Source: an uncultured Planctomycetales bacterium (lineage in GTDB: Bacteria; Omnitrophota; Gorgyraeia; Zapsychrales; Fredricksoniimonadaceae). From it: DNA of 64,000 nucleotides. The DNA is taken from positions 271,300-335,299 of the forward strand of contig CAZNDZ010000001.1 of the NCBI GenBank assembly GCA_964572155.1, written 5' to 3'. Under the pieces are notes generated by a model. It did not search any database, had not been told where the DNA came from, and saw only the letters and a list, made by a program, of their open reading frames with translations. Position 1 is the stretch's first letter. The number at the start of each line of letters is the position of its first letter. The position numbers were made by a program, and so were the translations under genes. Below are positions 7,477 through 51,574 of the stretch, piece by piece.

Positions 7477-7490
7477 TTTTACACAAAACC

Positions 7491-10465: not shown

Positions 10466-10508
10466 AGGGACAGTTTTCTATTTCAATAGGAACTGTCCCT
10501 TTAATTTT
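10466..10508 (+). terminator. Rho-independent terminator after rplT
   Basis: A perfect 10-bp stem AGGGACAGTT/AACTGTCCCT with a 15-nt loop, followed by TTAATTTT. Confidence 0.6.
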
Positions 10509-10513
10509 CAAAA

Positions 10514-14127: not shown

Positions 14128-14296
14128 TATAATCATTTATCCCTGCTAAGCACGTTAGGATTTGCGCTGTATTGAACCACAAAACTAACTCTAGGGAATA
14201 GGTTCTTGTAGACGCGCCTTGGCGGTCTCACACTTGTTCCCACCTGTGAAAACAGGTTCTCTTACACCAAGTTCGACGGCGGTGCGGGGTTTTTTA
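14128..14296 (+). ncRNA. Candidate small RNA or structured 5' leader. An extended -10 promoter, a ~150-nt GC-richer transcript with a GNRA-capped hairpin, and a T-tract immediately before rarA.
   Basis: TGgTATAAT is at 14125-14133. The hairpin CCTGT-GAAA-ACAGG is at 14242-14255. GGGGTTTTTT is at 14286-14295. There is no ORF and the RNA class is not identified. Confidence 0.25.
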
Positions 14297-21438: not shown

Positions 21439-21540
21439 GACGATTCCTTTCTAAAAATGTTAAAAAATAAAAAACCCCGCCGTTTTCTTATCGAAACAAC
21501 AGGGTTTCAGTCCAGTGGCAAACGATGCCTAAAAGCAGCT

Positions 21541-21566
21541 CAATACAAACATCAACGTTTGTATTG
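21541..21566 (-). terminator. Perfect 10-bp hairpin CAATACAAAC/GTTTGTATTG. It is a possible terminator for the minus-strand ldhA-like gene.
   Basis: On the minus strand it is followed by AGCUGCUUUU, which is only a weak U-tract. Confidence 0.3.
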
Positions 21567-21608
21567 AAACCGAGTATAGTATTTCATGATCAAAATGTCA
21601 AATAAAAC

Positions 21609-36720: not shown

Positions 36721-36791
36721 GAGGGCAACAACATTGATGTTGTTGCGTATCGATTAACATGGATGTTAAACGTAATTCCAAGGAGTTTTAC

Positions 36792-39700
36792 ATGAACGGA
36801 TGTCGCAAATACATTTCTTTAACGGTGTTGGTCGCTTTCTTTTGCTCGACGTTGACGCCCATTAAAAATGCCAATGCTGCGCCTTTGGTTGCGGGTTTAC
36901 CCACGCCTGGGGCCATGGTCAATTTAAGCGCAACATATACGCCGCTATTGATCAAAGGCTTGCGTGTTCATCCAGAAAATCCATTGGTGTTTGATTTTAT
37001 CGTCGACACAGGCAACTCGCCCATTAAGAGCGACTCTAAAGAATTGCGTGCGCAGTCCGAAAAGCTCATCAAATATTTTTTAGCGACATTAACCATCCCC
37101 GAGAAAGATTTGTGGGTCAACCTTTCTCCTTATGAAAAAGATCGCATCATCGAAGAACCATTAGGCCAAACCGAACTAGGCCGCGACATGTTGGCGCAAG
37201 ATTACTTGCTCAAACAATTAACTGCCTCCTTGGTTTATCCTGAAAAAGAATTAGGTAAGAAATTTTGGGACAAAGTTTATGCTCAAGCCCGCGAACGTTT
37301 TGGTGTTACCAATATTCCGGTCAACACGTTTAACAAAGTTTGGATTTTGCCTGATCAAGCCGACATTTTTGTCCGCAACAACACAGCCTTTGTTGTTAAT
37401 GGTCATTTGAAAGTTATGCTTGAGGAAGATTATTTGGCATCAAAGAAAAACAGCGTCGCTAGCAGCAGTGAGAATTCTCAAATTATTCGGGAGATTATTT
37501 TGCCTGAGATTGAAAAAGAAGTTAATCAAGGTCAAAATTTTGCCCCATTGCGTCAAATCTTTAATTCCATGATTTTAGCGACGTGGTACAAAAAAAGCCT
37601 CAAAGAAGCGCTGCTCAACCAAGTGTATGCAAATAAAGCCAAGATCAATGGCGTCGATGCAGATGATAAAGCGATTAAAGCCAAGATTTACGAACAATAT
37701 TTACAAGCCTATAAGAAGGGTGTTTTTAATTATATCAAAGAGACAAACACATCAAATGGTCAAGTTACCCCCAAGAAGTATTTCTCCGGCGGGGAAGTCT
37801 TTACTAATATCCCTGTAAGTGAAATTTCAAATCCTTCACCCGCAATGATTGCACCAGCAGGCAGTTTATTTTCTGTGAATGCAGCGATGAGTAGCAGCGC
37901 TACTGTTTATAGAGCGGCAAGATTAAATGGTCTTGAGAAAGCTCAAAAAGCTAAAGAAGATGAAATAAATACCACGGTTAATCGTTATTTTGAAGCTTTG
38001 CAATATGCAGAACCACTTCAACAAAGACAGGTAGCTGAATATCAGGGTTTGGCTAGATTTATTTTGGAGGACTTAGATGAGCATGTTGATTCAGCGACGA
38101 GAAAGAAGCTCATTGCAAGCGTCATGACAAACATTGTGGGTTGGGCAAAGCAAGATCTAGATGGGAAATTGGATCCAAATGCAAAAGCTGTTTTTTCTTT
38201 AACAGCGTTTCCAATCATTCATTGGGGACACATCGAGTTGATCTTAAGAACGCTCAATCAAAAACATTTGTCTGGCCTTTCACTAGATCTTAGTGCTCAA
38301 AGTGCGAATAATCCATTAATTGGGGCTTCGTATGAGGACAGGATGTATTTGTTAAAAATCATGTTGCAAAGGTTTAATGGAAGTTTCTCGAGAGACAAAT
38401 TGACAGCGATTAATGAAGATCAGCGTCCAGAAGAAACCGGCGAACGCAGGCTTTTGGAGAGCATCAAAACAGCCAATAAAGGACAAACGCTTTATTATCC
38501 TGTTGGAAAAGGCTATGAGAGTACTATAGAACAATTTGCTGCATGGGCGCGAAATTCAGAGAATGCTAAGATTCTCGAAGAAAGGGATTTAAAACTCGTT
38601 GTTCTCGTCAATAGATTAAGCGAAGCTCAAAAAGTTTCTGCTAAACAAATAGCAAACAGGGTTAGTGTGGAAGTTTTAGATGGTGTTGATTTAGGCATTA
38701 ATAACACCGCCATCAGAGCGGGGCTCGCAAGCACTCCTAATAAGCCAGCAATTAACGGCATATGGTTTATTCCAAAGTCATTGGTTTTGCATCTTGCACG
38801 CATATCTCCAAGCACTTTAGGAAATATCATGGGGATTCCCGACATTCTTAAAGACATTGATCAAAAAGGCATGAGTTCAAGCATTGCTGTCTTAAAAGAC
38901 TTTATTGATAATGTTTATTCTGCACAAGGAAATTACCTGATCACAGAAGAGATTGTAGAGTTGTTCATGCCCAATCTAGCAGATGATAAAAAACAGGTTT
39001 TGGCGGATAAAATGCAATCTCTGTTGGATAAAGCGATGACTCAAATTAATCCAAGAGAAGTTGCTGCCGGCATCAGGTTTTGGGAAGGGTTGGATAAGAC
39101 AACAGTTATTAAGGGTGATTATTGGGCTTTACAAGAAAAGGATGTGTCGGATTTAGACAGCATTTCAGCATCTGAAGGTAAAGAATTGGAAAGCATTGGC
39201 GCCAATACCTTGAGAAATGGCCAAATTGCGGTGATGGGGCTTTGGGCAGGCGCAAGCTCTAGAATGAATACACATGAAGCGCCAGCTGAGATTAAGAAGA
39301 TAGTTAAGGGAAAAGAATTAGGGTCAAAAGCAGTTGTTCCAATTGGACAATATAATGGCGATGTTATTACGTATGCCGATATTGCCGCGTTTAATTTAAA
39401 GCGATTATTTGATCAGATCGATGCAGCTGCTAAAAAGGCAGGCATTGTGTCTAATGTTACTAATAATGTCGTTGGTTTTATGACCAATGATGCGTATCAA
39501 TCAGAACATGATGCAATGTTTATAGCGCATCAAAATTATGGCATGAAGAATCCCATACATTCATTCAGACAGCGCTTAGGTCCTATTTTTCAAGCACGTC
39601 CAATTGATGTTGAGAAATATTTTGGAGAAGAAAATAAACAAACATTTAAAAATGAAGAAGAGCGAAGTGCTTGGAGACAGAAAAAAGAAAGAGCTTTGAA

Positions 39701-42140
39701 AATTGCAGGAGAGTCAAGTTTACGCATTGATTCTAGGGGAGACGAGAGCGCTGTTATTGTCCCTGAAGATAGACAGCCGTTAGGGCATGGAGAATTTCTA
39801 ATGCAGCTTATTGAGTCTGGGGAAATCATAAGACTTATTGATCAAGGGATTAGATTTGTCTCTATTAGAAATGTAGATAACTATGCAGCAAAGTATGACA
39901 GTATGTGGCTTCGGACGATAGGGTATGCCGTTAAGAACAATCTCGACTTTTTGATAGAGAATTCATTGCGTGTTCCAGGACAAAAAGGTGGGGTCGGTGT
40001 CGGTACACCTAACGGACATGTTATCGGAGAAGATCCAATTCTGAATGCGGATATTGATAAAACAACAGATCGGCCCAAAGTTCCATCTACTTCAGGAAAA
40101 TGGATGAATAATGCCGTTGGTATTGCAAGCATACCTTACATTTTGCAATTTTTTAAGCAAGAGGGACAAAGTGATGCTGAATTAATTGATGAGTTAAGAA
40201 ATGCAAACGCAGAACAGCGTGCTGCGATTGCCGATCGAGGCAGAAAACTACTTCCAAAAATTTACGACGTTAAACCTGGAAAGTCTTCCGACGAGAAGTA
40301 TAAGGGCGGCTTAACAAGTAAGGGTGAAACAAATCTTTGGACATCTACAATTGTTTCGGGAAAAGACAAGAAGATTGCAGTTGTTGGTGTCAGAGGCATT
40401 GGGCATTTTGATTTAAATGCTTTTAAAGCAGCAACAGCTGAACAAAAAATTGAGATGTTAAGAAGAGTTCGTTTTATGGCAACGAAACAGTGGGATGTTC
40501 CAGAATCATCAAGGGTTAAATTAAAGAAAGAATTAGAAACATTGTTGGGCAGAGAAATGACAGAAGAAGAAGCGGGCTTAAGATTGGAAAGTTACGAAGG
40601 AAATAAGCCTCTCGCAGACCCAATGATAAAATATATTATGGAAGCCCCCTTAGTTGACGAAAATATTTTCCAAGGCATGAAAGATGATCCTGCAATGTCA
40701 GGCCAAGTTGGGCGAGGTGAGGATCAATTGCAGCAGAAGTTATTCACTACAGAACAAATGGGTGCTGGTGAAGCGGCTTTAGTAGCAACCTTGAATCAAA
40801 AGCCATTGACAATTGAGGAGCAGAGATCCTATTTGGAAAAGGCAAGAAATGCGTTCTTTAGTGAAGTTCAAGCAGTGCCTGAAATTATGAGTGGTATGCA
40901 AGATGCGTTTAAGCGATTTCATATTACTAGCATCACATTTGAAAGTGCTAGACAAGATCAACTCCCAAGAAATTTAGAGGCGTTGAAGAATCAACTAAAT
41001 GTTATTAAGAACACAGCTGTGCAATTGATGCAGAAGGCAGCGCAAGATAAGATCAATACGCTTCTTCCTATTTTGGTACAAACGGATAAGTTTGGAAGAA
41101 AGAAAATTGAGAATCTTCAAGTGTTACAAATAGAACTTAACGCATTAAAGAATTCTAACGTCAGTGCAGATCAACAATTTGATGCGTTAAAAATCATTTT
41201 TAATAAACTCAAAGCATTAGATCAGGCGATGACCGTTGCAGAGCTTAATCGTATTAATGTTTTGTATCCCAGCGACGAGAGCGTTAGGATGCTTGATAAG
41301 ATTAAAGAATCAGATATTGTGTCTTTGGGATTAGTAAATTCAGATGAGGATATAGAAGCCCCAGAAAAAGCGCGTGGATTTTTAAATGGCGAGTTTTCAG
41401 AGCAAGATCTTCAAAATATAACAACTGTTCAAAGAGGAACAGAAATATTCCAGTTTCTTGAAAAAGTAGGATTCTTAGTGCGTGTAAATGGCCATGCGAT
41501 TTCAAGCCATAGGAGTCAACTTGAATTAAGAAGTTTCATAGAAATGAACTTTCCAGAGAACTTAAATGTTGTTGATTTCTTCAATCAATTAAGAAGGCCT
41601 TCGGTAAGATACTATCCTAGAATGCCGGAATTATTGGTTGTTAAGAATGCGACTTTTGATGTTATCGCTGGAACTCGGGTTATTCCTGATACAGCATCAA
41701 AGGGCCAGAAAGATTATCCTTTGGGGTATACAAGTGCAGTAAAGGCAATTTACTTTTCCGAAAGATTCCTTGAGCGCATGAAGGATCAGGGCGTAAAGTT
41801 AGACGACCTGCTTGTTTTTGTGAATGCTGGAGAAACTCCCAAAGAGCGAGCGGAAATGTATGCCAAGTATCAAGCTTACAAGAGAATGTTGGCAAATAGA
41901 GACGATCAAGCCCAGTTAGCAAATCCAGGCGGTATTGATCTTAATACGAAGGGTATGAGATCCTCTGTTACGGGGGATAAGATTGATATTCAATTTGATC
42001 CGGCGATGGTTGAGCAGTTTAAACGTGGGGATTTTACGGGTGTTCGACCGGTGATCTTAAATGTGACGCCGCTCACAAGCGTGTTGCCATTATTAGGACT
42101 CGCGCCCCGTCGTGAAGACGATGTTGCATTGGGCGTTTAA
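36792..42140 (+). CDS. Giant secreted protein B (about 1782 aa). It has a signal peptide, the shared N-domain, a UDP-glucose-pyrophosphorylase-like nucleotidyltransferase domain, a helical region and the shared C-terminal module.
   Basis: The start is chosen at ATG 36792, 6 nt after AAGGAG. The track ORF starting at 36759 has no Shine-Dalgarno. Signal peptide is MNGCRKYISLTVLVAFFCSTLTPIKNANA. The nucleotidyltransferase motifs are …QPLGHGEFLMQLIESGEIIRLIDQGIRFVSIRNVDNY… and …QKGGVGVGTPNG…. Confidence 0.8.
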   Translation: MNGCRKYISLTVLVAFFCSTLTPIKNANAAPLVAGLPTPGAMVNLSATYTPLLIKGLRVHPENPLVFDFIVDTGNSPIKSDSKELRAQSEKLIKYFLATLTIPEKDLWVNLSPYEKDRIIEEPLGQTELGRDMLAQDYLLKQLTASLVYPEKELGKKFWDKVYAQARERFGVTNIPVNTFNKVWILPDQADIFVRNNTAFVVNGHLKVMLEEDYLASKKNSVASSSENSQIIREIILPEIEKEVNQGQNFAPLRQIFNSMILATWYKKSLKEALLNQVYANKAKINGVDADDKAIKAKIYEQYLQAYKKGVFNYIKETNTSNGQVTPKKYFSGGEVFTNIPVSEISNPSPAMIAPAGSLFSVNAAMSSSATVYRAARLNGLEKAQKAKEDEINTTVNRYFEALQYAEPLQQRQVAEYQGLARFILEDLDEHVDSATRKKLIASVMTNIVGWAKQDLDGKLDPNAKAVFSLTAFPIIHWGHIELILRTLNQKHLSGLSLDLSAQSANNPLIGASYEDRMYLLKIMLQRFNGSFSRDKLTAINEDQRPEETGERRLLESIKTANKGQTLYYPVGKGYESTIEQFAAWARNSENAKILEERDLKLVVLVNRLSEAQKVSAKQIANRVSVEVLDGVDLGINNTAIRAGLASTPNKPAINGIWFIPKSLVLHLARISPSTLGNIMGIPDILKDIDQKGMSSSIAVLKDFIDNVYSAQGNYLITEEIVELFMPNLADDKKQVLADKMQSLLDKAMTQINPREVAAGIRFWEGLDKTTVIKGDYWALQEKDVSDLDSISASEGKELESIGANTLRNGQIAVMGLWAGASSRMNTHEAPAEIKKIVKGKELGSKAVVPIGQYNGDVITYADIAAFNLKRLFDQIDAAAKKAGIVSNVTNNVVGFMTNDAYQSEHDAMFIAHQNYGMKNPIHSFRQRLGPIFQARPIDVEKYFGEENKQTFKNEEERSAWRQKKERALKIAGESSLRIDSRGDESAVIVPEDRQPLGHGEFLMQLIESGEIIRLIDQGIRFVSIRNVDNYAAKYDSMWLRTIGYAVKNNLDFLIENSLRVPGQKGGVGVGTPNGHVIGEDPILNADIDKTTDRPKVPSTSGKWMNNAVGIASIPYILQFFKQEGQSDAELIDELRNANAEQRAAIADRGRKLLPKIYDVKPGKSSDEKYKGGLTSKGETNLWTSTIVSGKDKKIAVVGVRGIGHFDLNAFKAATAEQKIEMLRRVRFMATKQWDVPESSRVKLKKELETLLGREMTEEEAGLRLESYEGNKPLADPMIKYIMEAPLVDENIFQGMKDDPAMSGQVGRGEDQLQQKLFTTEQMGAGEAALVATLNQKPLTIEEQRSYLEKARNAFFSEVQAVPEIMSGMQDAFKRFHITSITFESARQDQLPRNLEALKNQLNVIKNTAVQLMQKAAQDKINTLLPILVQTDKFGRKKIENLQVLQIELNALKNSNVSADQQFDALKIIFNKLKALDQAMTVAELNRINVLYPSDESVRMLDKIKESDIVSLGLVNSDEDIEAPEKARGFLNGEFSEQDLQNITTVQRGTEIFQFLEKVGFLVRVNGHAISSHRSQLELRSFIEMNFPENLNVVDFFNQLRRPSVRYYPRMPELLVVKNATFDVIAGTRVIPDTASKGQKDYPLGYTSAVKAIYFSERFLERMKDQGVKLDDLLVFVNAGETPKERAEMYAKYQAYKRMLANRDDQAQLANPGGIDLNTKGMRSSVTGDKIDIQFDPAMVEQFKRGDFTGVRPVILNVTPLTSVLPLLGLAPRREDDVALGV

Positions 42141-42181
42141 TTGTATTGAAATGTGCAAGAACACTGGTATATTAAGTCCTT

Positions 42182-43417
42182 ATGAGCGAACAGGCGAAGA
42201 ATAAGAAATTAAATGTTTCATCTGCAGAAGAGTTGAAGATCCTGCGCACCATTGTGGACATTGCGTCCTCCGAGCTCGATCTTGTATTAACCCTTCAGTT
42301 GATTGTTAAAATTGTTACTGAAATTACCGCCGCTGATTCGGTTTTCATTTATCTCTTTGATGATAAGAAAGAAAACTTGGTGCTCATGGCATCCAAGACT
42401 AGCCATAAAAAAGAATTAGGGCAGTTGGAATTAAAGGTGGGCGAAGGTATTACCGGGTGGGTAGCTAAAGAGAACATGCCCGTTGCCATCAAGAGCCATG
42501 CCTATAAAGATCCTCGCTTTAAAGGGTTTGATGTGTTGCCAGAAGATCGCTACGAAGCCTTCCTTTCGGTGCCTATAGTATATAAGGGAAAAGCCATCGG
42601 GGTTGTTAACGTTCAACATAAACGCGAACAAGATTATTCCCAAACAACGGTTAACCTGCTTGAGATGATTGCCAAGCAAGTTGGCGGCGTCATTGATCAT
42701 GCGCGTCTTTTTGAAGAAACCAAGCAAAAAGCGCTGCAGTTTGATTCTTTGGTCAAGGTTAGCCAAAGCATCACCTCCGAACACTATTTAGACGAAATTT
42801 TAAATCTGATTGTGGTTGTGACCGCCGAGATGCTTAACTCTAAGATTTGCTCGATCATGTTGTTAGATGAAAAGGGCACAGAGTTATCGATTAAAGCAAC
42901 ACAATCATTAAGTGTGGACTATAAAAAGAAGCCAAATATTAGCGTAGAAAATTCTCTAACTGGTTCTGTTATAAAGACTAAAGAACCAGCTGTGGTTTAT
43001 GATGTGCAAAAAGAAGACAGGTATGCATATCGAGATCTAGCCTCCAAAGAAGGGTTAACCTCGATGGTGGCCGTTCCCATGATCCTCAAAGATAAAGCCA
43101 TTGGCGTTATCAATGTTTATACCAAGAAACACCATCGCTTCTCAAAAGAAGAGATCAATGTGTTGCAAATGGTTGCCAACCAAGCAGCGGTGGCGGTTGA
43201 AAATACCAAATTGATGGAAGAAGCCCTTAAAGCCAAGGAAGCCTTGGAAACACGCAAGTTAATCGAGCGCGCCAAGGGCATTATCATGAAAATGAACGGC
43301 CTCTCAGAAGACGCGGCCTATAAATTGATTCATAAAAAGAGCATGGATACCTGCCGATCAATGAAAGAAATCGCTGAGTCGATTATCTTAATGTCGGATT
43401 TGCAAAAGGGCATCTAG
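42182..43417 (+). CDS. GAF-GAF-ANTAR RNA-binding antitermination regulator
   Basis: Two GAF domains (…GEGITGWVAKENMPV…; …LTGSVIKTKEPAVVYDV…) and a C-terminal ANTAR helix bundle (…ALETRKLIERAKGIIMKMNGLSEDAAYKLIHKKSMD…). Confidence 0.8.
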   Translation: MSEQAKNKKLNVSSAEELKILRTIVDIASSELDLVLTLQLIVKIVTEITAADSVFIYLFDDKKENLVLMASKTSHKKELGQLELKVGEGITGWVAKENMPVAIKSHAYKDPRFKGFDVLPEDRYEAFLSVPIVYKGKAIGVVNVQHKREQDYSQTTVNLLEMIAKQVGGVIDHARLFEETKQKALQFDSLVKVSQSITSEHYLDEILNLIVVVTAEMLNSKICSIMLLDEKGTELSIKATQSLSVDYKKKPNISVENSLTGSVIKTKEPAVVYDVQKEDRYAYRDLASKEGLTSMVAVPMILKDKAIGVINVYTKKHHRFSKEEINVLQMVANQAAVAVENTKLMEEALKAKEALETRKLIERAKGIIMKMNGLSEDAAYKLIHKKSMDTCRSMKEIAESIILMSDLQKGI

Positions 43418-43437: not shown

Positions 43438-43465
43438 TTGACAAAATCGTTTTGTAGTATATACT
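43438..43465 (+). promoter_or_regulatory. Sigma70-type promoter for the amtB-1 leader: TTGACA, 16-bp spacer, TATACT.
   Basis: TTGACA is at 43438-43443 and TATACT at 43460-43465. Confidence 0.45.
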
Positions 43466-43598
43466 TACAACCGTAGTAAAAAATGAACGTTCGAAGCAAC
43501 GATGTTTCGGGCGATATTAAGGGCAACGTTTACGTCCTCTGACTGGCAAGATATATAAAGCCGCGGGGGATTTTTTGTTTTATACATATAGAAAACAT

Positions 43599-43662
43599 CA
43601 GTGACTGATGTGAAGGGCACAGAGGCTCAATCGTATTATTGAATACAGGTTGGGCTTTTTTT
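43599..43662 (+). promoter_or_regulatory. Leader RNA element: the CAGTGACT motif, a hexaloop hairpin GGGC-ACAGAG-GCTC, and an overlapping intrinsic terminator. This is a putative ANTAR target.
   Basis: The hexaloop hairpin is at 43615-43628. Its 3' arm GCTC is the start of the terminator 5' arm GCUCAAUC (43625-43632). That arm pairs with GGUUGGGC (43648-43655, 6 Watson-Crick pairs and 2 G-U). An inner GTATT/AATAC extension is present. The stem is followed by TTTTTTT at 43656-43662. Confidence 0.5.
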
Positions 43663-43859: not shown

Positions 43860-45095
43860 ATGGACGCAAATCCAATTAATGCCGGAGACACATCATGGGT
43901 TCTGGTCTCAACAGCGCTCGTTATGTTGATGACCCCGGGCTTAGCCTTCTTCTACGGCGGCATGGTCAGACGTAAGAACATTTTAGGTGTTTTAATGCAA
44001 TGTATGATCTGTTTGGCGCTGGTTAGCGTCTTGTGGGTTGTATATGGTTACAGCTTAGCGTTTGGTAAAGGTAATGCGTTTATCGGCGGTTTGGATTGGG
44101 CTATGCTTAAGGATGTTGGTCAAACAGCCAACGCTGATTATGCAGCAACAATTCCTCACCAAGTGTTTATGATCTTCCAAGGCATGTTCGCGGTGATCAC
44201 GCCTGCGCTTATCATTGGTTCTTTCGCAGAGCGCATGAAGTTTTCCGCATTCGTTGTTTTCACCGTTTTATGGTTAACGCTTGTATATTCTCCTATCTGT
44301 CACATGGTTTGGGCTGTTGGTGGTTTAGTCCGCGGTTGGGGTGCACTTGACTTCGCCGGTGGTACTGTTGTTCACATCAACGCAGGTATCGCAGGTTTAA
44401 TCTCTGCCATCTACTTAGGTAAACGTATCGGTACTGAAAAACCTGGTATGCACAATGTGCCTTTCGTTGTTTTGGGTGCAGCATTGCTCTGGTTTGGTTG
44501 GTTTGGTTTCAACGCTGGTTCTGCATTAGCAGCTAACGGTTTAGCTGGTTCTGCATTTGTCGTTACAAACACAGCCGCAGCTGCAGCAGCATTAGCATGG
44601 GCTGTTATGGAATGGATCTTTGCAGGTAAACCAACCATGATCGGTACAGTTTCTGGTGCCGTCGCTGGTTTAGTTGCGATCACTCCTGCAGCAGGTTTCG
44701 TTGATGTGGGCGGAGCGCTTATCATCGGTTTAGTTGTTTCTGTCATCTGCTACATGATGGTTGCTTTTGTGAAGACAAAGTTAGGGTACGATGATACATT
44801 AGATGCATTCGGTGTTCACTGTATCGGCGGTATTTGGGGCGCTTTAGCCACTGGTTTATTTGCTCAAAAGGCTATAAACTCTGCCGGTGCTGATGGTTTG
44901 TTCTATGGTAATCCTGCTCAATTCATCATTCAGATCAAAGCGGTATTGTTTACGGTTGCGTACACAGCCGTTGTCACATGGGTGATCTGTTTCGTGGTTG
45001 ACAAAGTCATGGGCTTGCGTGCTAATGCTGAAGACGAAGTCATGGGCTTGGATTTGAGCCAACATCATGAACGTGCATACACAATTTTAGACTAA
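43860..45095 (+). CDS. amtB: Ammonium transporter (Amt family), copy 1
   Basis: 411 aa with an 11-TM Amt fold and the conserved twin-His region. Confidence 0.9.
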   Translation: MDANPINAGDTSWVLVSTALVMLMTPGLAFFYGGMVRRKNILGVLMQCMICLALVSVLWVVYGYSLAFGKGNAFIGGLDWAMLKDVGQTANADYAATIPHQVFMIFQGMFAVITPALIIGSFAERMKFSAFVVFTVLWLTLVYSPICHMVWAVGGLVRGWGALDFAGGTVVHINAGIAGLISAIYLGKRIGTEKPGMHNVPFVVLGAALLWFGWFGFNAGSALAANGLAGSAFVVTNTAAAAAALAWAVMEWIFAGKPTMIGTVSGAVAGLVAITPAAGFVDVGGALIIGLVVSVICYMMVAFVKTKLGYDDTLDAFGVHCIGGIWGALATGLFAQKAINSAGADGLFYGNPAQFIIQIKAVLFTVAYTAVVTWVICFVVDKVMGLRANAEDEVMGLDLSQHHERAYTILD

Positions 45096-45123
45096 TCTAA
45101 CTTTTTTCACGAAAGGAAAGGCA

Positions 45124-45465
45124 ATGAAATTAATTATCGCAATCATCCAGCCTCATCGCCTCGACGATGTAAAGCGCGAGTTATATGCGGCGGATGTTAA
45201 TTTGATCACCGTATCAGAAGTGTTAGGCCACGGCCGTCAAGTTGGTGTTGACGAATTTTACCGCGGTGTTAAAGAAACAGGTAACTTGTTGCGTAAGATC
45301 CAAATTGAGATCGCGGTCAACGAAGATTTCGTTGAACCATCCATCAAGGCGATCATCAAGGGTGCACGCACAGGTAAAATCGGCGATGGTAAGATCTTCG
45401 TCTTAGATTTACCACGCACCATCCGTATTCGTACGGGCGAAGAAGGCACCAAGGCCATCGGCTAA
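45124..45465 (+). CDS. glnK: Nitrogen regulatory protein P-II (GlnK-like)
   Basis: 113 aa with the P-II fold and T-loop …GHGRQVGVDEFYRGVKE…. Position 51 is Glu rather than Tyr. Confidence 0.9.
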   Translation: MKLIIAIIQPHRLDDVKRELYAADVNLITVSEVLGHGRQVGVDEFYRGVKETGNLLRKIQIEIAVNEDFVEPSIKAIIKGARTGKIGDGKIFVLDLPRTIRIRTGEEGTKAIG

Positions 45466-45474: not shown

Positions 45475-45503
45475 TTGACTGAAAATAAATAACACGATAT
45501 CAT
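45475..45503 (+). promoter_or_regulatory. Sigma70-type promoter for the amtB-2 leader: TTGACT, 17-bp spacer, TATCAT.
   Basis: TTGACT is at 45475-45480 and TATCAT at 45498-45503. Confidence 0.45.
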
Positions 45504-45546
45504 GGCTCGTCTTTATGGGCGATGATGTCTGTAGGGCATAAGCTTT

Positions 45547-45596
45547 GAGGCTTGAGGATTCTGTTAAACATAGAATTCTCAGGCCTCTTTGTTTTT
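45547..45596 (+). terminator. Intrinsic terminator/attenuator within the amtB-2 leader
   Basis: A 16-bp stem GAGGCTTGAGGATTCT/AGAATTCTCAGGCCTC with 2 mismatches or wobbles and a 9-nt loop. It is followed by TTTGTTTTT and lies 80 nt upstream of the amtB-2 ATG. Confidence 0.6.
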
Positions 45597-45675
45597 GTGG
45601 CATTGGTGCCAGCGGTTCCGATGAGGGAAAAGGCGATAATCAAAGGATATATGATGATGCAGGGGAGTTTATATA

Positions 45676-46914
45676 ATGGAAGGCATTTCACAAATCAGCG
45701 CCGGAGATACGGCGTGGGTGCTGGTGTGCGCCGCGTTGGTCTTATTGATGACGCCAGCATTGGGTTTCTTCTATGGAGGGATGGTCCGTCGTAAAAATGT
45801 TTTAGGTATTTTGATGCAATGCATGAGTTGTTTGGCCTTGATTAGTATTTTGTGGGGCATTTATGGCTACAGTTTGGCGTTTGCACCTGGAAATTTGATT
45901 TTTGGTGGGCTTGATTGGTTTATGCTCAAAGGTGTTGGTGTAACACCCAATAGCGACTATGCGCCAACCATACCGCATGCTGCGTTTATGATTTTTCAAT
46001 GCATGTTTGCGGTCATCACCCCCGCAGTCATTGTGGGGTCATACGCAGAACGTGTGAAGTTTTCTGCATTTTTATTGTTCACCGTTTTATGGCTAACCTT
46101 TGTTTATTGCCCTGTCGCGCATATGGCCTGGGGCATGGGCGGACTATTTCGCAACATGGGCATCCTTGATTTTGCCGGCGGCACCGTTGTTGAAATCAAC
46201 TGCGGGATTGCAGGTTTAGTCACCGCATTATTTTTAGGTAAGCGCATCGGCATTAGTCATCCAACATTGCACAATATACCTTTTGTCGTCTTAGGGGCAG
46301 GTTTATTATGGTTTGGGTGGCTTGGCTTTAACGCGGGCTCTGCTCTCTCGGCTAACGGCGTTGCGGTCAATGCCTTTGTCACGACCAATATGGCTGCAGC
46401 CGCAGCCGCCACCAGCTGGGCGATTGTGGAATGGTGTTTGACAGGTAAACCAACCATCTTTGGTGCCGTCACAGGTGCGGTGGCAGGTTTGGTTGCCATC
46501 ACCCCAGCTGCGGGCTTTGTTGATTTTACAGGGGCCTTAATCATTGGCTTTGTTGTGAGCGTCATCAGCTACTTTTTCGTTGGCGCTATCAAGCATAAAT
46601 TCCAATATGATGATTCGCTCGATGCGTTTGGTGTTCATGCAGTGGGTGGTGCATGGGGCATGTTGGCCACAGGCTTATTAGCCACAACAACCGTCAATGC
46701 CGCAGGTGCAAATGGTTTACTAAACGGTAACCCAAAGCAATTTAGCATACAACTCATGTGTGTGATCATGACCATGGTTTATTGTGCGGCGGTTACCTTG
46801 GTGATCTGTTTTGTCGTCGACAAAATGATTGGCATGCGGGTTAATCGTGAGGATGAGGTCATGGGTTTAGACTTAACCCAGCATCATGAAAGAGCTTACA
46901 CCATCTTAGATTAA
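45676..46914 (+). CDS. amtB: Ammonium transporter (Amt family), copy 2
   Basis: 412 aa, about 60% identical to copy 1. Confidence 0.9.
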   Translation: MEGISQISAGDTAWVLVCAALVLLMTPALGFFYGGMVRRKNVLGILMQCMSCLALISILWGIYGYSLAFAPGNLIFGGLDWFMLKGVGVTPNSDYAPTIPHAAFMIFQCMFAVITPAVIVGSYAERVKFSAFLLFTVLWLTFVYCPVAHMAWGMGGLFRNMGILDFAGGTVVEINCGIAGLVTALFLGKRIGISHPTLHNIPFVVLGAGLLWFGWLGFNAGSALSANGVAVNAFVTTNMAAAAAATSWAIVEWCLTGKPTIFGAVTGAVAGLVAITPAAGFVDFTGALIIGFVVSVISYFFVGAIKHKFQYDDSLDAFGVHAVGGAWGMLATGLLATTTVNAAGANGLLNGNPKQFSIQLMCVIMTMVYCAAVTLVICFVVDKMIGMRVNREDEVMGLDLTQHHERAYTILD

Positions 46915-46940: not shown

Positions 46941-46969
46941 TTGACTTTATGGTCGATTTTCAGTAAAAT
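46941..46969 (+). promoter_or_regulatory. Sigma70-type promoter for the glnN leader: TTGACT, 17-bp spacer, TAAAAT.
   Basis: TTGACT is at 46941-46946 and TAAAAT at 46964-46969. Confidence 0.45.
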
Positions 46970-46970: not shown

Positions 46971-47046
46971 CAGTACTTAATTTGAGGGCACAGACGTCCT
47001 CCTTGAACCACAATGTTAGTGTGCGCCAAGGAGGACTTTTTATTTT
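46971..47046 (+). promoter_or_regulatory. Leader RNA element: the CAGTACT motif, a hexaloop hairpin GAGGGC-ACAGAC-GTCCTC, and an overlapping intrinsic terminator. This is a putative ANTAR target.
   Basis: The hexaloop hairpin is at 46984-47001. Its 3' arm GTCCTC is the start of the terminator 5' arm GTCCTCCTTG (46996-47005). That arm pairs perfectly with CAAGGAGGAC (47027-47036). The stem is followed by TTTTTATTTT at 47037-47046. The terminator 3' arm contains an AAGGAGG Shine-Dalgarno. Confidence 0.5.
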
Positions 47047-47079
47047 ATGGAATCTAACAACAACCAGGGGGGTCTATGA
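47047..47079 (+). CDS. 10-codon upstream ORF MESNNNQGGL. Its stop overlaps the glnN start codon (ATGA).
   Basis: ATG at 47047 directly follows the terminator T-tract. The stop TGA is at 47077-47079 and overlaps glnN ATG 47076-47078. The only strong Shine-Dalgarno in the area (47028-47034) serves this uORF. Confidence 0.35.
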   Translation: MESNNNQGGL

Positions 47080-49196
47080 GTCAAGCAAGAGAAGAAGTTA
47101 TTCAAGCCTGCAACGATGAAGATTGTGGTTGCGACGCAAATTTCAGCGCAAATTTACCTTCATATTTCGGTCAAAACGTGTTCTCGCTCAAGGTGATGCG
47201 CGAATTCCTTTCACCAAAAGCTTATGCATCCATTGAAAAGACAATTAAAGAAGGCGGCAAGGTAGATCCAGCGATTGCTGATGAAGTTGCCGAAGGCATG
47301 AAGAAATGGGCTATTTCTAAGGGTGCAACCCACTTTACACATTGGTTCCAACCTTTAACAGGTACCACCGCTGAAAAGCATGATTCATTTATCACATGGG
47401 ATGATAAAGGTGGGATTATCTTAAGTTTTGGCGGCAAAGAATTAATCCAAGGTGAACCAGATGCATCTTCTTTCCCATCCGGTGGTTTGCGTGCAACATT
47501 CGAAGCACGTGGTTATACAGGTTGGGATCCAACATCTCCAGCGTTCATCAAAGAAGGTCCAGAAGGCGCCACATTATGTATCCCAACATTCTATATTGGT
47601 TACCATGGTGAAGCGTTAGATAAGAAAACACCATTGCTGCGTTCCATGAATGCCTTATCTAAACAAATTTGCCGCTTGGCTAACTTGTTTAGCATCGACA
47701 CCAAGGGTAAACGTGCATACTGCACCTTAGGGCCAGAACAAGAATATTTTTTGATCGATAAAATTCACTTCGAAGCACGTATGGACTTGGTTCAAACCGG
47801 CCGTACCTTATTCGGTGTAAAACCAGCAAAGCATCAACAACAAGAAGATCATTATTTTGGCGCCATCAAGCCACGCGTCATGGCCTTCATGGAAGATTTA
47901 GACCGCACCTTGTGGGGTTTAGGTATTCCGTCGAAAACACGTCACAATGAAGTCGCCCCTGCGCAATACGAAATGGCTCCAATTTACGAAGATTTAAACA
48001 CGGGCGTTGATCATAACATGATCGCCATGGAAGTCATGCGTCAATTAGCCGATAAGCATGGTTTAGTTTGTTTGCTCCATGAAAAACCATTCGCCGGTGT
48101 TAACGGTTCTGGTAAACATAACAACTGGTCTGTCGTAGGTCCAGATGGCAAGAACTGGTTATATCCTGGTAAAACACCACACGAAAATGCGAAATTCTTA
48201 ACCACCTTATGCGCGATCATCAAAGCTGTCGATACATACGCTGACCTTTTACGCGTCACGGTTGCAACCGCTGGTAACGATCACCGCTTAGGTGCCAACG
48301 AAGCGCCTCCTGCGATTGTTTCAATCTTCTTAGGCGATCAATTATTTGACATCGTCGAGCAAATTGAAAAAGGCGGAGCAAAGACCTCCAAGCAAGGTGG
48401 CGAAATCAACGTGGGCGTAGATGCATTGCCAACATTAAGCAAAGACACCACAGATCGTAACCGCACATCGCCATTTGCGTTTACCGGCGCTAAGTTCGAA
48501 TTCCGCGCTGTTGGTTCAAATCAAAACCCTTCAGCTGCTAACATGGTTTTAAACACCATCGTCGCTGAAGCGATCTCACAAATCTGTGATCAATTAGAAG
48601 CTGATAAGAAAGCCGGCAAGGATTTCAATAAATCCTTACAAGCTGTCTTGCAAGACATCATCAAGAAACATAAACGCGTCCTCTTTAACGGCGACGGCTA
48701 CACCAAAGAATGGCATGCCGAAGCGAAGAAACGTGGTTTACCAAACATGAAAACAACACCAGAAGCCTTGGAAGTTTTAAAGGCTAAGAAGAACATCGAT
48801 GTTTTAGTCAAACATGGTGTTTTATCTGCTGTTGAAGTGGCCTCACGTTATGAAATCAACAAACATGCATACGATACTGTCATCAGCTTAGAAGGCAGCT
48901 GTGCAGCGACGATCGCTCGTACACAATTGATTCCTGCAGCTTTGGAATTCCAAGCCCAATTAAGCGTGGTTAAATCAGCGACACAAAAGAAATTGCAAAA
49001 ACAAGTTTCTGATTTGATCGATGATGCTTTAACGACAGTTGCCGCTTTGGAAGCAGCTGTGGCAAAGCATGATTCTGCTAAAACATCAGCAAACATGTTG
49101 AAATTACGTGAAGCCATCGATGGTTTGGAAGCATTAGTTCCAGCATCCATCTGGCCATTGCCAAGTTATGCTGAAATGTTGTTAATGAACGCATAA
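47076..49196 (+). CDS. glnN: Glutamine synthetase type III (GlnN)
   Basis: 706 aa, the length and architecture of type III GS. The catalytic region is …NGSGKHNNWSV…. Confidence 0.85.
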   Translation: MSQAREEVIQACNDEDCGCDANFSANLPSYFGQNVFSLKVMREFLSPKAYASIEKTIKEGGKVDPAIADEVAEGMKKWAISKGATHFTHWFQPLTGTTAEKHDSFITWDDKGGIILSFGGKELIQGEPDASSFPSGGLRATFEARGYTGWDPTSPAFIKEGPEGATLCIPTFYIGYHGEALDKKTPLLRSMNALSKQICRLANLFSIDTKGKRAYCTLGPEQEYFLIDKIHFEARMDLVQTGRTLFGVKPAKHQQQEDHYFGAIKPRVMAFMEDLDRTLWGLGIPSKTRHNEVAPAQYEMAPIYEDLNTGVDHNMIAMEVMRQLADKHGLVCLLHEKPFAGVNGSGKHNNWSVVGPDGKNWLYPGKTPHENAKFLTTLCAIIKAVDTYADLLRVTVATAGNDHRLGANEAPPAIVSIFLGDQLFDIVEQIEKGGAKTSKQGGEINVGVDALPTLSKDTTDRNRTSPFAFTGAKFEFRAVGSNQNPSAANMVLNTIVAEAISQICDQLEADKKAGKDFNKSLQAVLQDIIKKHKRVLFNGDGYTKEWHAEAKKRGLPNMKTTPEALEVLKAKKNIDVLVKHGVLSAVEVASRYEINKHAYDTVISLEGSCAATIARTQLIPAALEFQAQLSVVKSATQKKLQKQVSDLIDDALTTVAALEAAVAKHDSAKTSANMLKLREAIDGLEALVPASIWPLPSYAEMLLMNA

Positions 49197-49219
49197 TTTG
49201 TAGATCAAGTAAGATTGAA

Positions 49220-49253
49220 AAGGGCGGATATTTTTTATCCGCCCTTTTTGTTT
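49220..49253 (+). terminator. Rho-independent terminator after glnN
   Basis: Stem AAGGGCGGAT/ATCCGCCCTT (about 10 bp) with a T-rich loop, followed by TTTTTGTTT. Confidence 0.7.
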
Positions 49254-49272
49254 ATCTAGTATAATATCCGAC

Positions 49273-49998
49273 ATGATTCTGATTATTAAGCACATTGACA
49301 TCGAGGGGCCTGGAACCCTAGGCGACTTTTTGAATGCTCGGAAAATTCCATTCAAAATTATTGAATTAGGAGCAGGTGAAGCTTTGCCATTATCATTAGA
49401 AGGTATAGATGCGGTTGTCGTCTTAGGCGGTCCGATGAATGTGGATGAAGAAGATCAATACCAATTTTTAAAGCCCGAGAATGTTTTTATTAAGCAAGTC
49501 TTAGCGCTAGAAATACCATTTTTAGGTATTTGTTTGGGATCGCAATTATTAGCTAAGGCAGCAGGAGCCAAGGTCGTTAAGTCACCGGTTAAAGAAATTG
49601 GCTGGTATAACGTCGAGCTTACACCAGAAGGTAAACAAGATCCATTTCTTAAAGGTTTTAAAGCGGATGAAAAGATTTACCATTGGCATGGCGACATGTT
49701 TCAAATTCCTGCAAACGGCCAATTGCTTGCAACAGCACAAGGTTGCCCTCATCAGGCGTTACGCGTCGGGAAAAATGCCTATGGTGTGCAATTTCACGTT
49801 GAAGTGACAGACAAAAGCATCAAAGAATGGTGTGATGAGTATATAGAAAACGACCTGCCCGGACGTCGCGATCATGCCAAGGCCATGATCGATGATTATT
49901 ATCGGTATGAGCGTGCGTTTTTAGCGCAGGCCAATACCATTTATCAAAACTTTATTGAGATTGTGGAACATGCTAAACGTAGCGCTTGCACAAATTAA
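49273..49998 (+). CDS. Class I glutamine amidotransferase-like protein (standalone GATase1)
   Basis: 241 aa with the catalytic Cys in GICLGSQLL and the His/Glu region …GVQFHVEV…. Confidence 0.75.
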   Translation: MILIIKHIDIEGPGTLGDFLNARKIPFKIIELGAGEALPLSLEGIDAVVVLGGPMNVDEEDQYQFLKPENVFIKQVLALEIPFLGICLGSQLLAKAAGAKVVKSPVKEIGWYNVELTPEGKQDPFLKGFKADEKIYHWHGDMFQIPANGQLLATAQGCPHQALRVGKNAYGVQFHVEVTDKSIKEWCDEYIENDLPGRRDHAKAMIDDYYRYERAFLAQANTIYQNFIEIVEHAKRSACTN

Positions 49999-51574
49999 TC
50001 CTATCGTCGGAGATTTGACCGGCAATAGCATGAAGATCAAAACGGCCATCACTGATGCGCGCTTGTTGCATGCGGATGTGGTTGTCTTTTGTGAGCTTGT
50101 TCTAACAGGTTATCCACCGGAAGATTTATTGCTCAAAGAGCACTTCATTGCCAATAACATAAAGGCATTGCAAGCCATTGCCAAAGAGGTAAAAGGTATC
50201 ACGGCGATTGTGGGTTTTGTCGATCGCGACAGCCAAGGCCGCATTTACAATGCCGCCGCGGTGATATCCAGCGGCAAGATCATTCATGTGTATCACAAAC
50301 AGGAATTGCCTAACTATGGTGTCTTTGATGAGAAGCGCTATTTTAGCGTCGGAAAAAGCAACGGCATGGTTGTTATCAAGGGCGTGAAGGTGGGAGTTAA
50401 TATTTGTGAAGACATCTGGATTGATGACGCGATTTATCAGAACCAAGTTAAAGCAGGCGCAAAGCTTTTGATCAATCTTTCGTCTTCTCCCTATGAGGTT
50501 GGTAAGTTAAAGATTCGTGAATCATTGCTGTCACGCCGCGCGAAGAGCTTGAAGTGTCCCATAGTCTATGTGAATTGTGTCGGCGGGCAAGATGAGTTGG
50601 TGTTTGACGGAGCTAGCATGGTTTACGATAAAACCGGCAAACTAATCGCACGGGCTAAACAATTTGAAGAAGAGTTAATCTGCATTGATTTAAAAGAATC
50701 TAAAACACACATCGCCCCTATTTTACCTGAAATATCAGAGATTTATCACGCCTTGGTTGTCGGCACCCGTGACTATGTGCAGAAAAATGGATTTAAGAAA
50801 GCGGCTTTGGGTTTAAGCGGGGGGATTGATTCGGCGCTTGTGGTTGCGATTGCCGTTGATGCGTTGGGCCAAGACAATGTCACCGCCATCTCCATGCCAT
50901 CGCCGTATAATTTAAAAGCCACACGTGATGATGCGCGCATCATTGCAAAGAATTTGAATATCACGTTTCATGAGATCTCGATTAAGAAAATTTTAGAAAG
51001 CTACCTATCGTCCCTAAAGCCATACTTTAAAAGCACGCAGCCTAATATCGCCGAAGAAAACGTTCAAGCACGTATTCGCGGGGATATGCTCATGGCGTTT
51101 TCCAATAAATATGGGTGGTTGATTTTAACGACGGGCAACAAGAGTGAGATGGCTGCAGGGTATTGCACGTTATACGGCGACATGTCCGGTGGATTCTCGC
51201 CACTTAAAGATATTTTTAAAACCAAGGTTTATGAACTATGCCGTTGGCGGAATAAACAAGGCTTAAAACCCATCATCCCAGAAAGTGTGATTAAACGCGC
51301 ACCGACGGCAGAATTGCGACCCAATCAAACCGATGAAGCAAGCTTAGGCGCATATGCCGACTTAGATCAAGTGTTGGGTAAATACATCGAGCAGCATCAA
51401 CCTCTAAATAAAATTGTTACAACAAAAATTAAGTTGCCATACATTCAAAAAACAGCAAGGTTGGTTGATATCAACGAATATAAACGCCGACAAGCGCCCC
51501 CAGGGGTTAAGATCACCGCGCGCGCTTTTGGCAAAGATTGGCGTTTGCCGATCACCAATAAATATCGTGAATAA
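49970..51574 (+). CDS. nadE: Glutamine-dependent NAD+ synthetase (CN-hydrolase plus NAD synthase domains)
   Basis: N-terminal nitrilase-like domain (MLNVALAQINPIVGD…) followed by an NAD synthetase domain with SGGIDS. The start is at ATG 49970. Confidence 0.85.
   Translation: MLNVALAQINPIVGDLTGNSMKIKTAITDARLLHADVVVFCELVLTGYPPEDLLLKEHFIANNIKALQAIAKEVKGITAIVGFVDRDSQGRIYNAAAVISSGKIIHVYHKQELPNYGVFDEKRYFSVGKSNGMVVIKGVKVGVNICEDIWIDDAIYQNQVKAGAKLLINLSSSPYEVGKLKIRESLLSRRAKSLKCPIVYVNCVGGQDELVFDGASMVYDKTGKLIARAKQFEEELICIDLKESKTHIAPILPEISEIYHALVVGTRDYVQKNGFKKAALGLSGGIDSALVVAIAVDALGQDNVTAISMPSPYNLKATRDDARIIAKNLNITFHEISIKKILESYLSSLKPYFKSTQPNIAEENVQARIRGDMLMAFSNKYGWLILTTGNKSEMAAGYCTLYGDMSGGFSPLKDIFKTKVYELCRWRNKQGLKPIIPESVIKRAPTAELRPNQTDEASLGAYADLDQVLGKYIEQHQPLNKIVTTKIKLPYIQKTARLVDINEYKRRQAPPGVKITARAFGKDWRLPITNKYRE

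Follow-up and report, generated by a model that had tools for sequence, protein, structure and literature searches.

A tandem-GAF ANTAR protein as probable antiterminator of ammonium uptake and assimilation genes in Omnitrophota

In a 64 kb stretch of DNA from an uncultivated Omnitrophota bacterium, hereafter termed the window, whose positions provide all coordinates, the + strand carries a gene at 42182-43417 that encodes a protein with two GAF domains and a C-terminal ANTAR RNA-binding domain. It is followed by genes coding for ammonium transporters (amtB1, amtB2), the PII protein GlnK and a type III glutamine synthetase (glnN). From the features of the protein and of the transcript leaders located downstream, we consider it highly probable that this regulator would act as antiterminator for the leaders of amtB1-glnK, amtB2 and glnN and, with comparable confidence, that it would do so as one-component, signal-sensing protein controlling ammonium uptake and assimilation. 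All three leaders contain a hexaloop-type hairpin just 5' of a terminator, with the 3' arm of the hairpin constituting the 5' arm of the terminator, and these ANTAR-type elements are conserved with covariation across the Omnitrophota. These features support the coupling to antitermination of downstream leaders that had been proposed in a first-pass annotation of the same DNA, which had also placed the regulator at the head of co-oriented amtB-glnK-amtB-glnN genes, all of which are indeed found on the + strand.

Domain organization of the regulator and architecture of the leaders

Pfam profiles detect the GAF family in two separate stretches of the regulator (PF01590, E 1.2e-42, with GAF_2 and GAF_3 also matched) and the ANTAR family at residues 351-402 (PF03861, E 4.2e-21) with 74.9 bits compared to a curated cut-off of 27.3. 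Sequence matches of the latter region in the Protein Data Bank (PDB) include the ANTAR regions of Rv1626 (1s8n), EutV (6wsh) and NasR (4akk). The first-pass annotation had deduced this order of domains and the lack of a receiver domain from motif patterns and had proposed a profile search as a check, which finds both families in the expected order and no Pfam match to a receiver (REC, Response_reg) in the regulator at E <= 0.01. In place of a phospho-acceptor receiver, the N-terminal 340 residues comprise the two GAF domains. The protein is thus outside the receiver-ANTAR response-regulator class exemplified by EutV, GnfR and PdtaR and, by the defining features recognized in silico, it is a predicted member of the ANTAR antiterminator family.

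An AlphaFold2 model of the regulator, built on 15 homologs with a mean predicted local distance difference test score (pLDDT) of 75.9, displays α/β GAF folds at residues ~14-146 and 202-314 that are linked by a long helix (154-196), the organization that defines tandem GAF proteins. At the C-terminus, a long helix (322-372) is followed by two short ones (376-390 and 394-410; pLDDT about 80-86), in agreement with the coiled-coil helix and terminal helical bundle that are characteristic of ANTAR proteins. The best whole-chain matches found by Foldseek are the tandem GAFs of PDE5A, PDE2A and the cyanobacterial cyclase CyaB2 (E 1e-17 to 1e-16).

The -10 box of a promoter-like site upstream of the regulator is separated from its ATG by a gap of 8 nt and a Shine-Dalgarno sequence is absent in the window. 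Because the box is so near to the start codon and no Shine-Dalgarno sequence is present, the regulator mRNA is probably leaderless. In many related loci a -10-like box is found 6-11 nt 5' of the regulator ATG, with a Shine-Dalgarno-like motif at the start in 4 of 32, and the leaderless organization may extend across related species.

The promoter-like sites preceding amtB1, amtB2 and glnN (Table 1) rank among the best sigma70-like matches of the region, and the word CTTGACA is enriched upstream of amtB and glnN in relatives. The amtB1 leader is composed of two hairpin-terminator modules in tandem, the first of which consists of an upstream hairpin (P1), a second hairpin (P2) and terminator 1, whose arrangement GTCCTC...GGGGATTTTTT recurs in relatives. 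Latter also carry a second element, GGGC-ATTGAA-GTCC, 3' of terminator 1. A small open reading frame (ORF) of 40 residues is placed 3' of the leader terminators and 5' of amtB1. Its C-terminal motif (FWA.(K/E).H.V*) is shared by at least six relatives, in which it occupies the same place on the + strand, with no copy on the - strand, and the ORF probably codes for a real small membrane protein that is co-transcribed with amtB.

The amtB2 leader was aligned with the amtB2 leaders of two related loci (L007 and L033), and in L007 the position of P2 is occupied by GAGC-ACAGAA-GCTC. About 46 nt before the amtB2 start codon, a pair of tandem hexaloops without its own terminator is the sole strict tandem hexaloop on either strand of the window (0.17 expected) and it is kept in L007 (11340-11369). 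Neither a second terminator nor a sequestration of the ribosome-binding site by this pair, which is unstable alone, yielded a convincing fold (z +0.6) and both were discarded; the pair may constitute a second or a translational checkpoint. In the glnN leader, the terminator apex CAC-AATGTTA-GTG (47009-47021) offers a possible second hexaloop. A model candidate for an upstream P1 in this leader overlaps with the -10 box and was rejected, with the promoter spacing found in 27 modules, as described below, leaving no room for such an element.

Conservation of the locus and topology of the RNA elements

The best 120 homologs of the regulator are 72-95% identical, contain 396-438 residues and share the same Pfam domains. 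The named ones belong to Candidatus Omnitrophota (Omnitrophica) and carry titles such as 'GAF domain-containing protein' or 'GAF and ANTAR domain-containing protein'. A search across GTDB species, each represented by a single genome, yielded 150 stretches that encode relatives of the regulator, of which the best 80 were used with their flanks. In these 80 loci (referred to by L numbers), nearly all labelled as Omnitrophota metagenome-assembled genomes, the regulator is 68-93% identical, and tblastn searches reveal a recurrent order on one strand, with the regulator being followed by one or two copies of amtB-glnK, by glnN, an amidotransferase and nadE. A second ANTAR coding sequence was found neither in the window nor within 8 kb on either side in the 80 loci. 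Fragments of about 25 residues resembling ANTAR (68-75% identical) are found downstream of the full-length regulator in L046 (9935-10009) and L051 (10955-11026), which may be remnants of duplications.

When aligned on GTCCTC, related leaders show one architecture consisting of P1, a linker, P2 and the terminator. P1 is a variable stem closed by GC-[AxxGAx]-GT, P2 reads (A/G)GGGC-[AxxGAx plus 0-3 nt]-GTCC(TC) and the terminators end with ...(A/G)GAGGATTTTTT. The hairpin core GGC-[A/G]xxGAx-G(T)C (GGC/GGGC...GTC/GTCC) carries the ANTAR signature of A at loop position 1 and G at position 4 (A1/G4). In an alignment of 20 leader sequences (A2), 95% of the cells agree with the proposed pairing, and within P1 98% are paired. 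Seven of the nine pairs of P1 show compensatory two-sided changes, the covariation score observed in A2 is reached by none of 500 column shuffles, and pairing falls to 30-55% if the 3' partners are slid by 1-3 columns. P2 is near-invariant and its sole varying pair changes from G-U to A-U. In the loops, A occupies position 1 in 16 of the 20 sequences for P1 and in all for P2, G is found at position 4 in 20 of 20 for either hairpin and A at position 5 in 19 of 20 for each. The leaders thus contain A1/G4 hexaloops that are mutually exclusive with a terminator, as expected of ANTAR target RNAs, with some loops containing 7-9 nt or starting with G.

A rigid regular expression for the hairpin core found two sites in the window, which is no more than in shuffled sequences, and because loop lengths vary it was replaced by covariance models. 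The model R1, built from A2 and run on both strands of the window without filters, has its top three matches in the amtB1 seed (51.9 bits), the amtB2 leader (E 0.003) and the glnN leader (E 0.004). Applied to both strands of the 80 loci (1.1 Mb, E <= 0.05), R1 returns 62 matches, 43 of them outside of the seed, and all 62 are located downstream of the regulator on its strand, many starting 29-150 nt past its stop codon. The genes following these matches include amtB, glnN, Gcw_chp porin-like genes (L076, L078), a small DUF2934 protein, a small membrane peptide and, in L011, L015 and L027, a type I glutamine synthetase (glnA). A second model, R2, built from all 62 R1 matches, finds the same three window leaders among its top four matches. 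Both models also match an antisense P1-like sequence, GAGAAGC-GATGGT-GTTTCTT, inside the regulator gene (43093-43148, - strand, E 0.006-0.07), for which no counterpart was found in the 80 loci and which is likely due to chance. P2-type hairpins number 87 on the + strand, 53 of which with a matching terminator, compared to six on the - strand, none of them with a terminator. A strict scan that is independent of the motif required a pair of hairpins, both closed by G-C, whose hexaloops match [A/G]NNG[A/G]N exactly and which are separated by at most 16 nt. It finds 46 such pairs downstream and 11 upstream on the + strand and four on the - strand, with about 0.5 Mb on each side.

Two layouts can be distinguished among the leaders, a classical one in those of amtB, where P1 and P2 are both placed upstream of the terminator, and another in those of glnN, glnA and the DUF2934 gene, which contain a single promoter-proximal hairpin. 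In 27 modules, including that of glnN in the window, a sigma70-type promoter ends 11-16 nt before a hairpin of the form (A/G)AGGGC-AxxGAx-GTCCTC, and because of this spacing the transcript would contain no upstream P1. The terminators of such single-hairpin modules often display a further G-C-closed [A/G]NNGNN hexaloop at their apex. In total, it is found in 17 of 55 terminators, compared to 1.4 expected from shuffled interiors, 9 of 17 in promoter-proximal modules and 8 of 38 in others. We have discarded a consistent second hexaloop in glnN-type terminators, as it is found in only about half of the single-hairpin modules and is thus a tendency and not a rule. In the read-through state of such leaders, the 5' hairpin and the terminator apex would form a pair of hexaloops while the base of the terminator would be unpaired. 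An ANTAR dimer was described to contact one hexaloop at a time, with a single hexaloop defining the minimal site, and natural sites of this kind remain to be explored according to Walshe et al. (2022; PMC8934654).

The fourth-best R1 match in the window is located about 21 kb away from the regulator on the opposite strand (21511-21568, 13 bits, E 0.03) and is weak by itself. It precedes a gene for a porin-like outer-membrane protein with a signal peptide and a C-terminal YTF, for which no Pfam match was found. This porin-like product shares 38% identity (E 2e-49) with the Gcw_chp-type protein of L078, whose gene is placed between an ANTAR-type leader and amtB, and 32% with its counterpart in L076. 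The unit suggests a regulon acting in trans, and the porin-like gene is probably controlled by the regulator in the same way as the nitrogen genes. Of the local regulatory role that had been assigned to the protein in the first-pass annotation, the part concerning the leaders directly downstream is retained, but with this candidate target on the other strand its role is probably not only local.

Further genes surround the described units. Downstream of glnN, a strong terminator (49216-49250) is followed by genes for a class-I glutamine amidotransferase and a glutamine-dependent NAD synthetase (49216-51574, +), whose pairing with glnN is kept in most related loci and in front of which no ANTAR-type leader was detected. 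In several relatives, such as L013 (9363-9578), L014 (2606-2821) and L017 (6005-6220), the regulator and the amtB leader are separated by a gene for a 71-residue DUF2934 protein, which has a single-hairpin leader of its own, and none is found at the corresponding position of the window. Directly 5' of the regulator, the gene at 36759-42140 (+) encodes a secreted protein of 1793 residues with a weak stretch resembling UDP-glucose pyrophosphorylase. In L002, similar proteins sharing the same N-terminal 'FDFIVD' region are encoded on both sides of the regulator (2980-7947 and 9406-10728).

Table 1. Features of the window, with position, strand and basis of the assignment
Feature	Position	Strand	Basis
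GAF-GAF-ANTAR regulator	42182..43417	+	ORF listing (ATG start, 411 aa); Pfam; homologs
Regulator promoter-like site TTGAAA, 16 nt, TGgTATATT	42146..42173	+	motif match
GAF1, PtsP/EI-Ntr-type, residues ~12-175	42215..42706	+	NCBIfam PtsP profile, PDB, Foldseek
GAF2, residues ~203-339	42788..43198	+	best Pfam GAF stretch 203-339; partial NCBIfam NifA N-terminal GAF
ANTAR RNA-binding domain, residues 351-402	43232..43387	+	Pfam; preceded by long helix 322-372
amtB1 promoter-like site TTGACA, 16 nt, TATACT	43438..43465	+	motif, 11/12 matches
amtB1 module A P1 CGTTCGAAGC-AACGAT-GTTTCGGGCG	43488..43513	+	R1 seed, 51.9 bits; covariation
amtB1 module A P2 AGGGC-AACGTTTAC-GTCCT	43520..43538	+	3' arm common to terminator 1
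amtB1 terminator 1, GTCCTCTG...CGGGGGAT + U-run	43534..43581	+	folds
amtB1 module B, ACATC-AGTGACT-GATGT (43595-43611), then GGGC-ACAGAG-GCTC (43615-43628)	43595..43628	+	sequence, fold, strict hexaloop scan
amtB1 terminator 2, GCTCAATCGTATT...AATACAGGTTGGGC + 7 U	43625..43662	+	fold z-score -4.6; 5' arm overlaps module B hairpin
Small ORF, 40 aa	43687..43809	+	ribosome-binding site AAGGAGG; one predicted hydrophobic membrane helix; between leader terminators and amtB1
amtB1-glnK operon	43860..45465	+	Pfam, NCBIfam
amtB1	43860-45095	+	Pfam, NCBIfam
glnK	45124-45465	+	Pfam, NCBIfam
amtB2 promoter-like site TTGACT, 17 nt, TATCAT	45475..45503	+	motif
amtB2 leader, P1 CTTTATGGGC-GATGAT-GTCTGTAGGG (45511-45536) and degenerate P2 AAGC-TTTGAG-GCTT (45540-45553)	45511..45553	+	R1 16.3 bits, E 0.003
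amtB2 terminator, 18-bp stem + U-run	45547..45597	+	fold z-score -6.6; overlapped by P2
Tandem hexaloops TGGC-ATTGGT-GCCA, 4 nt, TTCC-GATGAG-GGAA	45598..45629	+	3' of amtB2 terminator; strict scan
amtB2	45676-46914	+	Pfam, NCBIfam
glnN promoter-like site TTGACT, 17 nt, TAAAAT	46941..46969	+	motif
glnN leader hairpin GAGGGC-ACAGAC-GTCCTC	46984..47001	+	R1 E 0.004, R2 E 0.0003; 14 nt after -10 box
glnN terminator GTCCTCCTTG...CAAGGAGGAC + U-run	46996..47046	+	fold; overlaps glnN hairpin
glnN, glutamine synthetase type III	47076-49196	+	Pfam GSIII_N, Gln-synt_C, Gln-synt_C-ter
Remote unit promoter TTGACA, 17 nt, TATACT	21601-21596, 21578-21573	-	same hexamers as amtB1 promoter
Remote unit hairpin TCAATACAAAC-GTTGAT-GTTTGTATTGA	21567-21540	-	11 bp
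Remote unit GGC-ATCGTTT-GCC	21529-21517	-	sequence
Remote unit terminator	~21508-21461	-	fold z-score -5.5
Porin-like gene, 302 aa	21438-20530	-	homology to L078/L076 proteins
6S RNA	14137-14294	+	Rfam, 49.1 bits vs gathering score 46.4
Three tRNA genes	6906-7341	+	Rfam

Signal, proposed mechanism and alternative explanations

The identity of the sensor domains provides some indication of the signal. GAF1 matches positions 2-163 of the NCBIfam PtsP profile PRK11061 (E 2e-41) and aligns over 160-164 residues with PtsP GAF structures (PDB 3ci6, E 2e-23; 3trc, E 4e-18), which Foldseek superimposes with a template modelling (TM) score of 0.83-0.86, a root mean square deviation of 2.5 Å and 33-34% identity. 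It thus resembles the N-terminal domain of PtsP (EI-Ntr) over its full length, and homologs of the regulator were named 'signal transduction protein with GAF and PtsI domain' by the Joint Genome Institute (JGI). GAF2 shows a partial NCBIfam match to the N-terminal GAF of NifA (residues 186-364, E 5.6e-31). Glutamine binding by the EI-Ntr GAF was reported for Sinorhizobium, Caulobacter and E. coli, with 2-oxoglutarate exerting the opposite effect in the E. coli protein (PMC4848567 and references therein), and the N-terminal GAF of Azotobacter NifA binds 2-oxoglutarate (PMC8219145). Glutamine and 2-oxoglutarate, both named as candidate metabolites in the first-pass annotation, are plausible because GAF1 belongs to the PtsP/EI-Ntr subfamily, and we tentatively propose one or both as ligand, an assignment by analogy that is possible but short of probable. 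The likeliest signalling scheme, in which glutamine would turn the regulator off and/or 2-oxoglutarate would turn it on, is less certain. For a cyclic nucleotide, which was also suggested, there is no specific support. On visual inspection, no motif with the NKFDE spacing of cyclic-nucleotide GAFs was seen in GAF1 or GAF2, and the similarity to GAFs of phosphodiesterases is generic and at the level of the fold (12-20% identity).

The target promoters look constitutive and of the sigma70 type and the regulator gene itself is not preceded by a hexaloop leader, and for these reasons we infer that the terminators would be the main point of control. In the default state, hairpins of 4-6 bp would be outcompeted by the strong terminators and transcription would end in the leader. 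Under nitrogen limitation, low glutamine and/or high 2-oxoglutarate at the GAF domains would activate the regulator, which is probably a constitutive dimer held together via its tandem-GAF helices. The ANTAR domains would then bind the hexaloops and stabilize the small hairpin, which sequesters GTCCTC and leaves the terminator base unpaired, so that RNA polymerase would continue into amtB, glnK and glnN. Separate attenuators for each unit and the two in series before amtB1 might establish graded, gene-specific thresholds.

Several observations weigh against this proposal or parts of it. In the AlphaFold2 model, the inter-domain geometry is unreliable (predicted TM score 0.48), and we have thus dropped any reading of dimerization or autoinhibition from it. 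The ligand was deduced solely from the similarity to domain subfamilies at 30-34% identity, and at this low identity specificity is not confidently transferable. In the RNA, the P2 loop of amtB2 (TTTGAG) lacks A1, that of amtB1 module A contains 9 instead of 6 nt, and the model scores of the amtB2 and glnN leaders are marginal alone (E about 0.003-0.08), so that the credibility of these leaders derives from their position and conservation. Adjacency to nitrogen genes, as emphasized in the first-pass annotation, holds in the window and in 48 of the 59 loci with at least 4 kb of downstream sequence, where amtB, glnK or glnN follow on the same strand. In the remaining 11 no nitrogen genes follow the regulator, and adjacency is thus frequent but not obligatory. 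Among these exceptions is L002, whose regulator is 92% identical and placed between genes for large secreted proteins. Finally, the search for ANTAR proteins covered the window and the flanks of the loci, and a second one might be encoded elsewhere in the genome.

The described features were weighed against four other explanations. In one of them, antitermination would be real but the nitrogen signal would reach the regulator via a protein partner, either the PII protein GlnK or another sensor, resembling the PII control of some NifA GAFs or the pairs AmiC-AmiR and NasS-NasT. This would agree with the location of glnK inside the first operon of the predicted regulon, in the window and most relatives, and with the partial match of GAF2 to the N-terminal GAF of NifA, on which PII proteins act in several diazotrophs. 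Regulation of ANTAR proteins by partners is also documented (PMC7496416). Still, we find this scenario unlikely, since GAF1 matches a documented direct binder of glutamine from end to end, tandem GAFs are classical sensors of small molecules and, besides glnK, no conserved partner gene was seen to adjoin the regulator. Even less likely is a regulator that binds the leaders but acts negatively or elsewhere, by blocking translation or affecting mRNA stability. The tandem hexaloops upstream of amtB2, placed between terminator and start codon, would be compatible with such activity, as would the non-canonical ANTAR sites at ribosome-binding sites of mycobacteria (Walshe et al., PMC8934654), but the 53 modules in which the hairpin 3' arm serves as 5' arm of a terminator with a U-run display the geometry of antitermination and, in most leaders, the hairpins are far from start codons.

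It also appears highly improbable that the leaders would be targets of another ANTAR regulator, such as a receiver-ANTAR protein resembling GnfR, with those of the GAF-GAF-ANTAR protein residing elsewhere. Besides the confined search and the 11 loci without adjacent nitrogen genes, the distance between the Geobacter receiver-ANTAR gene and its targets glnK and amtB (PMC2995071) speaks for this possibility. It is opposed by the short spacing between the regulator stop codon and the first leader in many loci, by the strand and placement of all 62 matches together with the synteny, and by the lack of a further ANTAR coding sequence in the searched regions. Finally, the leaders could be protein-independent attenuators, either metabolite riboswitches or leader peptides, whose likeness to hexaloop RNAs would be coincidental. 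Riboswitches that sense glutamine are found upstream of nitrogen genes in other phyla, and a 10-codon mini-ORF rich in Asn and Gln (MESNNNQGGL, 47047-47079, +) precedes glnN, with its stop codon overlapping the glnN start (ATGA), probably by chance. However, we have rejected this mini-ORF as leader peptide, as it is absent in all relatives. With Rfam gathering thresholds, matches in the window were limited to tRNAs and 6S RNA and no family was matched in the leaders, the hairpins are too small for a ligand pocket, and the A1/G4 loop conservation with covarying stems fits the ANTAR rule precisely, which together make this explanation scarcely credible.

Relation to known systems

The ANTAR rule describes dual hexaloops with A1 and G4, the second of which is mutually exclusive with a terminator (PMC3369931). 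Ramesh et al. have predicted such sites before genes for PII proteins, ammonium transporters and glutamine synthetases in several phyla and noted the lack of any characterized GAF- or PAS-ANTAR protein (PMC3369931). According to Goodson et al. (2020), NasR and PAL were the only one-component ANTAR proteins studied (PMC7496416), and a 2025 review mentions GAF-ANTAR just as a common architecture. In the literature searched, we found neither a characterized GAF-ANTAR protein nor any account of ANTAR regulation in Omnitrophota. Antitermination by ANTAR proteins and its tie to nitrogen genes are already established, and what is new here is the uncharacterized sensor architecture, the clearly delimited predicted nitrogen regulon and the frequent single-hairpin/terminator-apex topology. 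For GAF-ANTAR, among the commonest ANTAR architectures, the locus provides a concrete regulon with at least three to four defined leader RNAs and a motif backed by covariation, together with a strong physiological hypothesis for the ligand, either glutamine or 2-oxoglutarate. It suggests that ammonium assimilation in an uncultivated phylum is controlled by constitutive promoters combined with attenuation, and dozens of natural single-hexaloop leaders bear on the revised model of ANTAR binding. A wider reading, which we regard as rather doubtful, would make the protein the master nitrogen regulator of the Omnitrophota, which would need neither a kinase nor an NtrC-type activator to read glutamine and 2-oxoglutarate and would control a dispersed regulon by an undescribed single-hexaloop/terminator-apex topology. 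If true, the leaders would constitute natural single-hexaloop and terminator-embedded ANTAR sites of the type that, according to Walshe et al. (2022), had yet to be discovered.

The closest functional analogue is the GnfK/GnfR system of Geobacter sulfurreducens, whose ANTAR protein is likewise an antiterminator of nitrogen genes including glnK and amtB. GnfR binds CAGGCAANGGCGCC (GGC-AANGGC-GCC) in front of the nifH, glnK and amtB terminators (PMC2995071), and this hexaloop hairpin, which is located upstream of leader terminators and overlaps with them, is very near to the core GGC/GGGC-AxxGAx-GTC/GTCC of the window. In contrast, GnfR contains a receiver domain and is activated via phosphorylation by a histidine kinase, whereas the window protein carries two GAF domains and no receiver, and the GnfR system is part of a sigma54/GnfLM cascade mainly concerned with nitrogen fixation, whereas sigma70-type promoters, ammonium uptake and glutamine synthetases are found in the window and its relatives. 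NasR from Klebsiella oxytoca is the closest one-component analogue, in which a sensor is fused to ANTAR via a long helix (PMC7496416, PMC3369931). It similarly acts in nitrogen assimilation on an A1/G4 hexaloop hairpin before a leader terminator, but its NIT domain binds nitrate or nitrite and it serves one leader (nasF), whereas the regulator described here contains tandem GAFs and would control at least three to four units, each of which is attenuated separately and some of which carry attenuators in tandem.

EutV from Enterococcus faecalis is the mechanistic reference, a dimeric ANTAR protein with P1/P2 hexaloops of which P2 is exclusive with the terminator (PMC3369931, PMC8934654). Like the predicted regulon, it covers several terminators, and the amtB leaders of the window share its P1-linker-P2-terminator layout. 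EutV differs by its control through phosphorylation and its ethanolamine genes and, compared to its targets, many Omnitrophota leaders have no upstream P1 and carry a second hexaloop at the terminator apex. The GAF domains of PtsP (EI-Ntr) and NifA, which GAF1 and GAF2 resemble in sequence, are documented sensors of glutamine and/or 2-oxoglutarate (PMC4848567, PMC8219145), but they are coupled to other outputs, a phosphoenolpyruvate-dependent phosphotransferase in the former and a sigma54 activator in the latter, whereas the output of the window protein is an RNA-binding ANTAR domain.

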